From NCBI GenBank assembly GCA_013151235.1, contig JAADIO010000039.1, positions 1-52,232 of the forward strand: DNA of 52,232 nucleotides, read 5' to 3'. The notes under the pieces are model-generated. The model saw only the letters and a program-made list of their open reading frames with translations, made no database searches and was not told the origin of the DNA. Position 1 is the stretch's first letter. Each line of letters starts with the position of its first letter. Made by a program: the position numbers and the translations under genes. The stretch is from Deltaproteobacteria bacterium (GTDB taxonomy: Bacteria > CG2-30-53-67). Below, piece by piece: positions 1 to 52,232 of this stretch.

Positions 1-71
1 AACTTCCCAATCCCACATCATTTAAGGTGGGGCAGGAGTACTTTTTTTTCTTGACAACTGTCAACCATATC
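1..71 (+). mobile_element. Right end of a putative IS110-superfamily (IS1111-like) insertion sequence, truncated by the window edge
   Basis: 34-71 is the exact reverse complement of 52195-52232. Outward-facing TTGACA (51-56), then a 12-nt segment ending CCAT (57-68), then 3 nt to a junction inside a REP-like palindrome. No transposase in the window. Confidence 0.55.
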
Positions 72-131
72 AGCTTGTCGAAGGAAGCCGGCCGAAGGGT
101 CGAAGGGCTTCGACTTTTTACGAGACCATCA
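72..131. repeat. Right half of the REP/MITE-like element, interrupted by the IS
   Basis: agcttgtcgaagg...gactttttacgagaccatca matches the right parts of the copies at 21065-21201 and 29402-29628. Confidence 0.85.
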
Positions 132-8981: not shown

Positions 8982-10532
8982 ATGAAGCAGGCAATTTCTT
9001 GCAATGCTTCAATTTTCTGGCTGTTGTTCAGTATTCTCTTCCCGCTGCCGGTATATGCCGTATCGGCTGGTTCCCATGCCGCTTTGCGAATGATCGTCAT
9101 CCCGATGAGACCGCCTTCCCGGATGTACAGGGATTTCCTGCCTTTGAAACATTATCTGGAGAAAAAACTGGATCAGCCGATCGATCTGGATGTTGCGCGA
9201 AAGAATTCTGAAATTGCCCAACTCTTCGAAAAAAAAGAGATCGATATCGCCTTCGTTTGTCCTACCCTCTATTGTGATCTGACGCGGGCGGTCTCCGTGG
9301 TTCCTCTGGTGAAACTGCGGATTAACGGGAGTGATCAGTATCGGAGCGTCCTGGTGGTCCGGAAAGATTCTCCGATTTATCGAACAGCGGATCTTTATGA
9401 TCGTACACTGGTCTATGGGAGGTATTACTGTCCCGGTTCGGGGCTTCTGCCGAGGATCATGTTCAAACGGGTCGGTTTGTCCGAGAATGATTTTCTGGAA
9501 GTGGTCAATCTCGGGAATGACGAGAGCGCCCTCCTGGCCGTGATGGCCCGGATGTTCGACGTCACCGGTGTGCCGGAGATGGCCGTGAGTCTCCTGGAAG
9601 AGAAAAACCTCCGTATCCTCCGTTATTCGGATCCGATACCGCAGTATCTTTTCGTGGCGCGCAACGGCATGGATGAGAAGTTTATTCAAAAGTTGAAAGA
9701 GGAAATGCTCGGCTTAAACCATGATGCGGACAAGCAGGCCATCATCGGCGGCATCGAAAAAGGAGTGGATGGATTTTCGGAGGCGAAAGATTCCGATTAC
9801 GACATTGTTCGTGTGCTGATTGAAAGTCTGGACGGGGGGGCGGTTGGATCCGCATTTTCCAAAGGGGAACATACCCTTGTCGTAGAGCCGCTCTATTATG
9901 ATGCGGATCTTTTCCGTCGGCTGAAACCGTTTCTCTCGAGATTGCGATCGGAAACGGGCTGGAATTATCATCTTCGTATTCCGGAGAGTATCAAGGCATT
10001 CCTGAAAGATAAAGAGGAGGGAAAAGGGGACTTCTACCTTCAGGAAGCCGGACTTTTCTCCCAATTCGGGACTTCCCGGGAAGAATCGATCGGCTCGTTG
10101 AGTCTTGTGCCGAAGGAGGCGAATCGTGCTGTGATTGTTGTACCCGGAAGAGGTGCTGTGAAGAGGTTGAAGGACCTGCGGGGGAAAACGGTTGGAGTCC
10201 CTTCACGGTTTTCGGAAGGCGGTTTTCTGGCTCAGACGCGTTGGTTAAAGAATCAGGGTATTCCGCAGGATTCCATCCGGGTCAAGGTCCTGGGAACCTG
10301 TGAGAATGTCTTGATGAATGTCTATCTCGGGAAGGTGGATGCCGGTTTCGTGACGCTTGATACGTTTCAGCGTTTGGAAAAAGACCTCCAGCCGAAACGT
10401 GTCGTGATCCTTGGTGAGACCCCTCCCCTCGGTGATTGGGTGATTACCGCTCGCAAAAATGTTCCTGACGTGATCAGGAAGAAAGTTGGGAAGATCCTTG
10501 AAGAAGAGGTTTTTCGCTCCCCGCGGAACTGA
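8982..10532 (+). CDS. Periplasmic protein with two tandem PhnD/SsuA-type substrate-binding domains
   Basis: Signal peptide; two repeats of the phosphonate-binding fold (YRSVLVVRKDS...DLYDR and RAVIVV...DLRGKTVGV...VYLGKVDAGFV); directly upstream of the kinase. Confidence 0.75.
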   Translation: MKQAISCNASIFWLLFSILFPLPVYAVSAGSHAALRMIVIPMRPPSRMYRDFLPLKHYLEKKLDQPIDLDVARKNSEIAQLFEKKEIDIAFVCPTLYCDLTRAVSVVPLVKLRINGSDQYRSVLVVRKDSPIYRTADLYDRTLVYGRYYCPGSGLLPRIMFKRVGLSENDFLEVVNLGNDESALLAVMARMFDVTGVPEMAVSLLEEKNLRILRYSDPIPQYLFVARNGMDEKFIQKLKEEMLGLNHDADKQAIIGGIEKGVDGFSEAKDSDYDIVRVLIESLDGGAVGSAFSKGEHTLVVEPLYYDADLFRRLKPFLSRLRSETGWNYHLRIPESIKAFLKDKEEGKGDFYLQEAGLFSQFGTSREESIGSLSLVPKEANRAVIVVPGRGAVKRLKDLRGKTVGVPSRFSEGGFLAQTRWLKNQGIPQDSIRVKVLGTCENVLMNVYLGKVDAGFVTLDTFQRLEKDLQPKRVVILGETPPLGDWVITARKNVPDVIRKKVGKILEEEVFRSPRN

Positions 10533-21064: not shown

Positions 21065-21201
21065 ATGATGGTGTCGTAAAAAGTCAGTTCCCGGATACCG
21101 TTCATGGTTCGACAGGCTCACCACGAACGGAATATCAATCACTTACACCGTTCGCCCTGAGCGTGTCGAAGGGTCGAACGGACTTTTTACGACTTCATCA
21201 A
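21065..21201. repeat. Intact REP/MITE-like element: terminal inverted repeats around two REP-like hairpins
   Basis: atgatggtgtcgtaaaaagtc ... gactttttacgacttcatca ends; internal ccgttcatggttcgacaggctcaccacgaacgg and ccgttcgccctgagcgtgtcgaaggg. Confidence 0.85.
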
Positions 21202-21336
21202 TTTTGTTTTATTCGTATATTCTAATTTGCCGGGCTGTTGCCGTCTCCCCCTCCATGGATAATGCGTAATTTCCTTCTCTTTTCATAATGTTATGAGCCA
21301 CGAAGTTTTATATATCAAGTTCGGAATATTTAATTC

Positions 21337-28560: not shown

Positions 28561-29397
28561 ATGTTACTGATTGGAGAGCGTATCAATGTGATTACGAAGG
28601 TACAACGGGCGGCCATGGAGGCCCGGGACCCGAAGCCGATCCAGGAGATTGCAAGGGCACAGGTCGAAGCCGGCGCCAACATGCTTGATATCAATATCGG
28701 TCCCGCCGAGGATGACGGACCGGAGCTGATGGACTGGATCGTCAAGACCGTGCAGGAGGTGGTGCAGGTCCCTCTTTCCCTGGATACGACGAACCTCGAT
28801 GCCATCCGGGCGGGGCTCAAGGCGCACAACAATGAATGGGGCAAGCCGATGATCAACTCCACTTCCGGTGAAACGGTACGGCTCAACACCTTCATGCCCG
28901 TGGCGGCGGAGTTCCAGTGTGATATCATCGGGCTGTGTCTCTCCGGTTCGGGACTTCCGGCGGATGCCAACGAGCGGTGCGCCATTGCCGTGGATATTAT
29001 GGGGAAGGCCGCCGAAGTGGGGCTGCCCGTTGAGAATATCCACCTGGATCCGCTGGTGCTGATGCTCAACGGGAATCAGGAACAGGCCATGCACTGTATT
29101 AACGCCGTGGAGATGTTCCAGACTCTGAACGATCCGCCCATGAAAACCGTCGTCGGTCTTTCCAATATCGCCAATACGGCGCCCATGAAGATGAAGGGGA
29201 TCCTCACGGCCGTCTTCTATAAGATGCTTGTTGATGCGGGTCTCTCCGGGGCGATTATCGACACCCTCGAAAAAGATTTCATGGAGGTTGTTCGTACCGG
29301 CGATCCGACATCGGTGTATCCGGCGGAGGATGTGGAAAAGACCATGAAGGTGATGCGGGGAGAGATTATGTATGCCCACTCATTCTTAGAGGTTTGA
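28561..29397 (+). CDS. acsE: Methyl-THF:corrinoid Fe-S protein methyltransferase
   Basis: LIGERIN, LDINIG, LSLDT, MINST, HLDPLV, VGLSNI; pterin-binding TIM barrel upstream of acsD. Confidence 0.9.
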   Translation: MLLIGERINVITKVQRAAMEARDPKPIQEIARAQVEAGANMLDINIGPAEDDGPELMDWIVKTVQEVVQVPLSLDTTNLDAIRAGLKAHNNEWGKPMINSTSGETVRLNTFMPVAAEFQCDIIGLCLSGSGLPADANERCAIAVDIMGKAAEVGLPVENIHLDPLVLMLNGNQEQAMHCINAVEMFQTLNDPPMKTVVGLSNIANTAPMKMKGILTAVFYKMLVDAGLSGAIIDTLEKDFMEVVRTGDPTSVYPAEDVEKTMKVMRGEIMYAHSFLEV

Positions 29398-29401
29398 TTA
29401 T

Positions 29402-29628
29402 TGATGAAGTCGTATTCCGGATTTCGTTCATGGTTCGACAAGCTCACCACGAACGGTCTATTAAGCTTTCCGAGCATGTGGTTCGACAAGCTCACCACGA
29501 ACGGTCTATTAAGCTTGCCGAACCACATGCTCGGAAGCTTGTCGAACCACACGAACGGAATATCAATCACTTACACCGTTCGCCCTGAGCTTGTCGAAGG
29601 GCTTCGTGACTTTTTACGACACCATCAT
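29402..29628. repeat. Rearranged copy of the REP/MITE-like element
   Basis: Same ends and hairpins as 21065-21201, plus a 38-bp direct duplication (29431-29468 = 29479-29516) and an inverted copy. Confidence 0.85.
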
Positions 29629-29647
29629 TATTGAAGAGGAGAAAACA

Positions 29648-52140: not shown

Positions 52141-52194
52141 ATGATGGTGTCGTAAAAAGTCGTTTTTCGGATTCCGTTCATGGTTCGACAGGCT
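52141..52194. repeat. Left half of the REP/MITE-like element, interrupted by the IS
   Basis: atgatggtgtcgtaaaaagtc...ccgttcatggttcgacaggct, matching 21065-21118. Confidence 0.85.
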
Positions 52195-52232
52195 GATATG
52201 GTTGACAGTTGTCAAGAAAAAAAAGTACTCCT
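52195..52232 (-). mobile_element. Second copy of the same IS right end, in inverted orientation
   Basis: Exact reverse complement of 34-71. Confidence 0.55.

Follow-up and report, generated by a model that had tools for sequence, protein, structure and literature searches.

The IS1111 group of the IS110 family includes ISPa11. IS4321 and IS5075, said to be further members of the group, reportedly target the terminal repeats of Tn21-family transposons, an observation that is attributed to Partridge and Hall in 2003. In the account of the seekRNA elements by Siddiquee et al. (2024, PMC11187229), IS1111 members are described as having perfect or near-perfect subterminal inverted repeats of 11–13 bp, together with terminal extensions of 7 (or 6) bp at the left end and of 3 bp at the right; the transposase gene is followed by a non-coding region. 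Their seekRNA is presented there with the complement of the top strand first and the match to the bottom strand second. For bridge RNAs, Durrant et al. (2024, PMC11208160) described a target loop and a donor loop, each of them including the core dinucleotide, and placed the RNA of IS1111 members in the right end. Insertion of IS110-family elements into REPs was recorded by Tobes & Pareja (2006, PMC1525189) for ISPa11 (6/6), ISPpu9 (7/7) and ISPpu10 (7/7).

The element found at both ends of the contig analysed here is like ISEc11 and ISXne4, as these are presented in PMC11187229, in its subterminal repeats and its 7- and 3-nt extensions, and would also be like them in forming a promoter at the circle junction. 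It is unlike them in the sequence of the repeats, in its target and in its hosts, which belong to an uncultured lineage whose phylum is represented by 14 species genomes. With IS621, as described in PMC11208160 and PDB entry 8wt6, the element would share the DEDD and Transposase_20 domains, a two-loop RNA, the CT/AG core and a repeat-type target, the protein and the RNA being known here from relatives, one of which matched IS621 in the PDB with E 1.1e-10. In contrast, IS621 belongs to the IS110 group, carries its RNA in the left end, lacks long subterminal repeats and has the reversed guide order. All copies occupy a single position within a palindromic intergenic repeat that is itself multicopy (here 5/5 right ends and 5/5 left ends), which resembles what has been published for ISPa11, ISPpu9 and ISPpu10. 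Those elements use short Pseudomonas REPs, whereas the target here is the inner palindrome of a MITE-like unit of ~140 nt, which occurs in both arms and is hence available in both orientations. The target would be part of another mobile element, as for IS4321 and IS5075, although both the target and the hosts differ.

Right ends at both termini of the contig

The window, meaning the whole 52,232-nt stretch of DNA that was analysed, is an entire contig (C48) of the source genome (G000). A first-pass annotation of this sequence had claimed an inverted identity between its two ends, and positions 34–71 were indeed identical to the reverse complement of 52195–52232. The match was even wider than claimed, since arms of 49 nt (34–82 and 52184–52232) were 98% complementary. 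The junction sequence TTCGACA(A/G)GCT|GATATGG, also taken from that annotation, was present at both window ends (61–82 when reverse-complemented, and 52184–52203). We consider it probable, at about 85%, that the window ends represent the right-end (RE) termini of a single multicopy IS1111-group (IS110 family) element of the RNA-guided type, present here as two inverted copies.

At the start of the window, the last 71 nt of the RE of copy A occupied 1–71 on the plus strand, with the remainder of the element to the left of position 1. On the same strand, this segment contained a hairpin with the arms CCCAC/GTGGG (12–31), a run of eight T residues (42–49), an outward-facing −35-like TTGACA (51–56), the subterminal inverted repeat IRR AACTGTCAACCAT (56–68) and the 3-nt terminal extension ATC (69–71). 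The segment ACTGTCAACCAT (57–68) lay between the TTGACA and the ATC, which is the end layout that had been proposed. Next, at 72–73 on the plus strand, came the core dinucleotide AG, which reads CT on the minus strand and was found at both element junctions. Beyond it, the remainder of the right arm of a palindromic host repeat extended over 74–131 (plus strand), beginning with the right-hand target flank CTTGTCGAA (74–82) and ending with GACTTTTTACGAGACCATCA. The context of 74–131 was also found uninterrupted at C29 and C64.

At the other end of the window, the left arm of the palindromic host repeat was found at 52141–52194 on the plus strand and matched 21065–21118 at 91%. This arm was closed by the target flank TTCGACAGG (52184–52192) and the core CT of the right window junction (52193–52194), both on the plus strand. 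The last 38 nt of the RE of copy B followed on the minus strand (52195–52232), inverted relative to copy A, with its ATC at 52195–52197, its IRR at 52198–52210 and its TTGACA at 52210–52215; the element runs on past the window end. The suggestion that one insertion had hit the left hairpin of the repeat and the other the right hairpin agreed with this arrangement: the left window end corresponds to the right arm (72–131) and the right window end to the left arm (52141–52194), the motif occurring once per arm of the ~140-nt palindrome. Because the motif is inverted in the two arms, the two copies have opposite orientations at the two window ends, yet a constant orientation relative to the motif.

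Copies across the source genome assembly

The assembly consists of 73 contigs totalling 2.62 Mb, the shortest contig being 3316 bp. Contig ends overlap by 91 nt, as expected from a de Bruijn graph cut at repeats. The 38-nt RE was found at exactly five sites, all of them contig ends (C48 left, C48 right, C6 left, C43 left and C71 left), with the longest visible RE, 80 nt, at C6 left. Every one of the five abutted AGC(C/T)TGTCGAA, after which the DNA differed. The right end of C73, which showed only 18 nt of RE followed by AA instead of AG, is probably a sixth copy of the element.

A different sequence was common to five other contig ends (C1 left, C6 right, C60 left, C27 right and C22 right), with 89 nt of it visible at C22 right. 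Judged by comparison with complete relatives, this second group is the left end (LE) of the same element type. In element orientation it reads ...TG|AGACATA-ATGGCTGACAGTT-GGCAAAAAAGTGCCTGCCCC..., so that the junctions are ...TG|AGACATAATGG for the LE, in 5/5 cases, and ATATC|AG for the RE. The visible copies were 100% identical over 38–89 nt. BLAST of both ends against the source genome revealed no internal copies of either, and an nhmmer search of this genome for orphan copies of the relatives' RNA matched only the five REs, together with weak opposite-strand matches on the LEs. The element is present in at least five copies. The five REs, the one variant and the five LEs shared the same site and orientation, with no copies at random sites among them, as would be expected from the initial proposal of a multicopy element with one target. 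The contigs break at the element because its body of ~1.5 kb is repeated and falls below the contig size of the bin.

Shared junctions of this kind could also arise if a repeat unit already bearing the element had been duplicated or recombined, with no need for independent insertions, and the right end of C48 and the left end of C43 do have 53 nt of flank in common beyond the element. That common flank, however, stops at the repeat boundary. Furthermore, the five REs were found in three arm contexts (CCATGAACGG..., GGGCTTCG... and GGAAGCCGG...), each followed by unrelated unique DNA, and the orientation of the element relative to the motif was the same in both arms. Duplication of an element-bearing unit is on these grounds extremely improbable as the origin of the shared junctions.

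The target motif and its palindromic repeat

Joining the LE flank to the RE flank rebuilds the sequence (C/G)TG-AG-CYTGTCGAA. The rebuilt target, the 13-mer TGAGCYTGTCGAA, was found unoccupied 59 times in the 2.62 Mb, and 70 times when the Y position was left free, counts which are lower bounds since many contigs break inside the repeat. By simple arithmetic, chance would give ~0.16 occurrences of a random 13-mer in which one position allows two bases. The motif sits in inverted orientation in both arms of a palindromic intergenic repeat of ~140 nt, which recurs dozens of times in the genome and the outer motif of which occurred 148 times. Within the window, unoccupied TTCGACARGCTCA was located at 21108–21120, 29434–29446, 29482–29494 and 29586–29598; the first-pass annotation had listed all but the third of these.

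An intact repeat unit of ~142 nt was found at 21065–21206, with an empty target at 21108–21120 (minus sense) and a one-base variant, TGAGCGTGTCGAA, at 21158–21170. Its outer arms were TGATGGTGTCGTAAAAAGTC and GACTTTTTACGA..CATCA, and its DNA was predicted to fold into one long imperfect hairpin of −37.6 kcal/mol (z −7.53), with none of 200 shuffled sequences as stable. A longer, composite copy spanned 29391–29633 and contained empty targets at 29434–29446 and 29482–29494 (both minus sense) and at 29586–29598 (plus sense). This unit was directly flanked on both sides by ATTATT. It also carried an internal tandem duplication of 48 nt, in which 29431–29473 and 29479–29521 were 98% identical.

The target had been named a REP, and the repeat is multicopy, palindromic and intergenic, in keeping with that name. 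At ~140 nt, however, it is longer than a classical REP, and a RAYT-type REP is unsupported because the repeat was absent from the flanks of all five Y1-transposase loci. These five Y1_Tnp (IS200-like) matches in the source genome were at C72:70384–70713, C26:71389–71724, C27:25234–25560, C33:25600–25866 and C62:33681–33896, one of them with stop codons, and neither the outer nor the stem motif of the repeat was present within 2.5 kb of any of them (0/5). The repeat looks like a palindromic MITE, and REP-like/MITE-like palindromic repeat is the cautious, safe name for the unit.

Anatomy of the ends and the modelled circle junction

The left subterminal repeat IRL, ATGGCTGACAGTT, and the right one, AACTGTCAACCAT (IRR, window 56–68), are 13 nt long and match at 12 of 13 positions. 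The terminal extensions are 7 nt on the left (AGACATA before IRL) and 3 nt on the right (ATC after IRR), with boundaries set from the 5 + 5 junctions of the source genome and from multicopy relatives, and with the shared AG assignable to either end. Only this 2-nt AG core was common to both junctions, without a conventional target duplication. Insertion was site- and orientation-specific at TG|AG|CYTGTCGAA in 5/5 REs (plus the one variant) and 5/5 LEs. A left end with the repeat placed about 6–7 nt in had been predicted, and ATGG(C/T)TGACAGT was found 7 nt from the terminus at the five other contig ends. Every structural feature of the IS1111 group that can be read from the ends was observed.

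The distance between TTGACA and the RE tip is 15 nt. The LE begins AGA-CATAAT, so that CATAAT starts 3 nt in. When the RE and LE were joined in a model of the circle junction, TTGACA would be followed after 18 nt by CATAAT, or after 17 nt by ACATAA. The −10 hexamer that had been anticipated 17 nt from TTGACA is therefore matched by ACATAA, but not by CATAAT at 18 nt.

Relatives that share the right end

Public genomes, one per species, were scanned with the 19-nt end GACRACTGTCAACCATATC, which gave 91 matches. According to the record titles, these were mainly from Nitrospirota, Desulfobacterales-type bacteria and Pyrinomonadaceae/Blastocatellaceae; the complete genome of Desulfosarcina widdelii contained five copies of the end. 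TTGAC was present upstream of 87 of the 91 matches. The dinucleotide following the RE was AG in 73, AA in nine, GG in six, AC in two and GC in one. The left boundary was fixed by comparing copies within one genome, and a motif search was then run, yielding 33 complete elements of 1534–1748 bp with the same LE and RE. These start with (A/C)GACAT(A/T)ATGG(C/T)TGACAGTT and end with AACTGTCAACCATATC.

The longest upstream ORF was subjected to a Pfam scan for the 55 matches (of 91) that had at least 1500 nt of upstream sequence. Both DEDD_Tnp_IS110 (PF01548) and Transposase_20 (PF02371) were identified in 39/55 loci and only one of the two in 4/55, these being broken genes. The 12/55 loci with neither domain comprised solo ends, an IS66 insertion, chance matches in unrelated genomes and a degenerate copy. 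The protein of one relative (L024) scored 278.9 bits against NCBIfam NF033542, 'IS110 family RNA-guided transposase' (cut-off 140), and its PDB matches were the ISCro4 and IS621 transposases. In the two-domain loci the ORF stopped 305–573 nt ahead of the RE, leaving a long non-coding region downstream of the transposase gene. Compared with L024, the source-genome LE (87 nt) was identical at 70/84 positions and the RE (80 nt) at 59/75 aligned nt.

Some loci showed features of their own. One common target, CT|AG|TGTCCATCCAGAAATGG..., with long conserved flanks, was observed for L023, L036, L063, L065, L071, L072 and L087 and for ~10 short loci, all Desulfobacterales-type; this target may in turn belong to a conserved repeat or to another mobile element. 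L045 and L073 had AG at the left junction and GG at the right; their 5' guide matches GG and their 3' guide carries AG, and they exemplify natural elements with different cores at the two junctions. At L025, an IS66-family transposase gene was found 108 nt from the RE in a copy that has no more than 65 nt in common with its sister copies; this looks like the integration of one insertion sequence into another.

Putative guide RNA in the relatives

A k-mer search detected a 7–9-nt reverse complement of the element's own target at −216 to −239 from the RE in nearly every element. This segment spans the last base of the left flank, the core and 5–6 nt of the right flank. A sense copy of the left flank plus AG was often present at −183 to −188 from the RE. 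The order of the two guides agrees with the IS1111 seekRNA order as set out in PMC11187229. The consensus fold of 20 distinct aligned 3' regions contained 40 pairs, four of them with compensatory changes. In that fold the two target-matching segments face each other across a single internal loop, which is bounded by the pairings GGAG/CTCC and CYCTCG/CGAGR. An invariant ATATCAG, identical to the element's own right tip plus core, lies in a second loop, within the stem CGACG/CGTCG. Complementarity to the left tip is incomplete on the 5' side of this second loop. Based on the sequence match, the second loop would be the donor loop. No Rfam family was found over the RNA region, the only matches being two sub-threshold BjrC68 hits in the flanking DNA of L009.

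At positions +3 to +7 of the present target, the 5' guide matched all five in 15/20 elements, 4/5 in two, 3/5 in two (L009 and L030) and 1/5 in L033. Over all variable positions, 93/120 were matched by the 5' guide (permutation mean 47.8, maximum 68) and 58/100 by the 3' guide (mean 38.6, maximum 53). The observed value was reached in 0/2000 permutations in each case, although the significance is overstated, as the test treats related elements as independent and several of the 20 are close kin. In total, ~15 different guide sequences were found, each mirroring its own site.

An alternative to guidance by RNA is that the protein recognizes the hairpin structure of the repeat. The target does lie within a strongly palindromic unit, and a 2026 preprint reports a 'sequence-structure dual-match' layer for ISPpu10. 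Against this, ~15 target sequences are used by relatives whose proteins are of one family and whose donor ends are identical, each target being mirrored in the RNA loops of its own element, and the RNA is described as essential in the experiments with IS1111 members reported in PMC11187229. Recognition of the hairpin by protein, with no guide RNA, is accordingly judged very unlikely.

Window positions 1–71 matched the 3' part of the RE-encoded RNA of the relatives (nhmmer E 5.9e-08, profile positions 193–242), and the 80-nt RE of the source genome aligned with the 3' hairpin and the T-run of that RNA.

Search for the element body and for copies in the host lineage

The element's own transposase gene, RNA and guides were not present in the 73-contig assembly, in which the RE is visible for 80 nt only. 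Searches of metagenome contigs gave zero matches to an exact 41-mer of the RE and zero to the junction pattern, neither of which is proof of absence. The RE (71 nt) was matched in 2/61 genomes, the source genome and G001, the latter with a solo remnant. The LE (89 nt) was matched in 3/21 genomes, namely the source genome, G005 (a solo remnant) and G020 (a partial match). The transposase of a relative was matched in 1/14 genomes of the phylum (G013), at 56% identity and with different repeats. No complete copy was found in the other 13 phylum genomes, G013 having a distant homologue and G001 and G005 solo end remnants.

The remnant in G001, which is of the same genus (L002, C227, near 10052–10080), is an RE piece of ~80 nt that adjoins a clpC-like gene and abuts GGCCTGTCGAAGGG. 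The remnant in G005, of the same family (L110, C21:37773–37868), is an LE piece of ~100 nt that is not followed by a transposase.

The only IS110-family gene in the source assembly runs from C35:23709–24422 into C7, encodes ~346 aa with PF01548 on C35 and PF02371 on C7, and is single-copy. It was rejected as the transposase of the multicopy element, being single-copy and without matching ends or subterminal repeats. A 16-nt LE match at C35:21196 lies in unrelated sequence and was attributed to chance.

The copies in the source genome could instead be non-autonomous miniatures consisting of an LE and an RE without a transposase, either mobilized in trans or no longer mobile. The assembly has no transposase of the subfamily, G001 and G005 contain short solo end remnants, and 12 of the 55 related ends had no IS110-type ORF upstream, all of which are compatible with miniatures. 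However, there is no overlap between the 87-nt LE and the 80-nt RE, which align with their respective parts of full-length elements. The 100% identity of the copies over the visible 38–89 nt suggests recent activity, and, with a shortest contig of 3316 bp, the bin would be expected to lack a repeat of ~1.5 kb. We consider miniatures unlikely, and favour full-length copies of an IS1111-group element.

Discussion

The element at the ends of the window is probably of the IS1111-group, bridge/seekRNA type and aimed at a host repeat. The mechanism has already been published, and a specialist would not be surprised by it. The initial reading, an IS1111-type recombinase that targets the repeat, is supported, in part through relatives. 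By analogy with these, the element would be RNA-guided and programmed against this repeat. The 33 complete relatives suggest that its body encodes a DEDD/serine recombinase of ~400 aa, followed downstream of the gene by a structured RNA (seekRNA/bridge RNA) of ~230 nt. The first internal loop of this putative RNA would hold two guides, a 5' guide that complements the top strand of the core and right flank, and a 3' guide identical to the left flank and core. The second loop would carry ATATCAG, matching the element's own RE plus core. For the source-genome copy, the predicted 5' guide is approximately ACARGCTC and the predicted 3' guide ends in TGAG.

In the proposed mechanism, the element would be excised as a circle, at whose junction TTGACA from the RE and CATAAT from the LE would form a promoter. 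The complex of RNA and recombinase would then pair the circle junction with the repeat motif and recombine the two at the AG core.

For the source genome, the element accounts for ~10 contig breaks and provides a scaffolding rule, in which LE contigs pair with RE contigs through the repeat arm that they rebuild. A broader and decidedly speculative reading, which we think is improbable, is that the subfamily is a naturally reprogrammed bridge-RNA series with an invariant donor end, for which record titles indicate a spread over three or more phyla (Nitrospirota, Desulfobacterota-type and Acidobacteriota), and which is aimed here at the inner palindrome of a MITE. Under this reading, inverted element pairs, such as the pair bracketing the 52-kb contig, would occur because each MITE offers the target in both orientations, and the recombinase with its RNA could act on such pairs to invert or excise large chromosomal segments.

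For the family, the relatives constitute a natural data set on the guide–target rules and mismatch tolerance of IS1111-type bridge/seekRNAs. Their series combines one donor end with ~15 target guides and an AG core in 73 of 91 ends, and its exceptions are informative.
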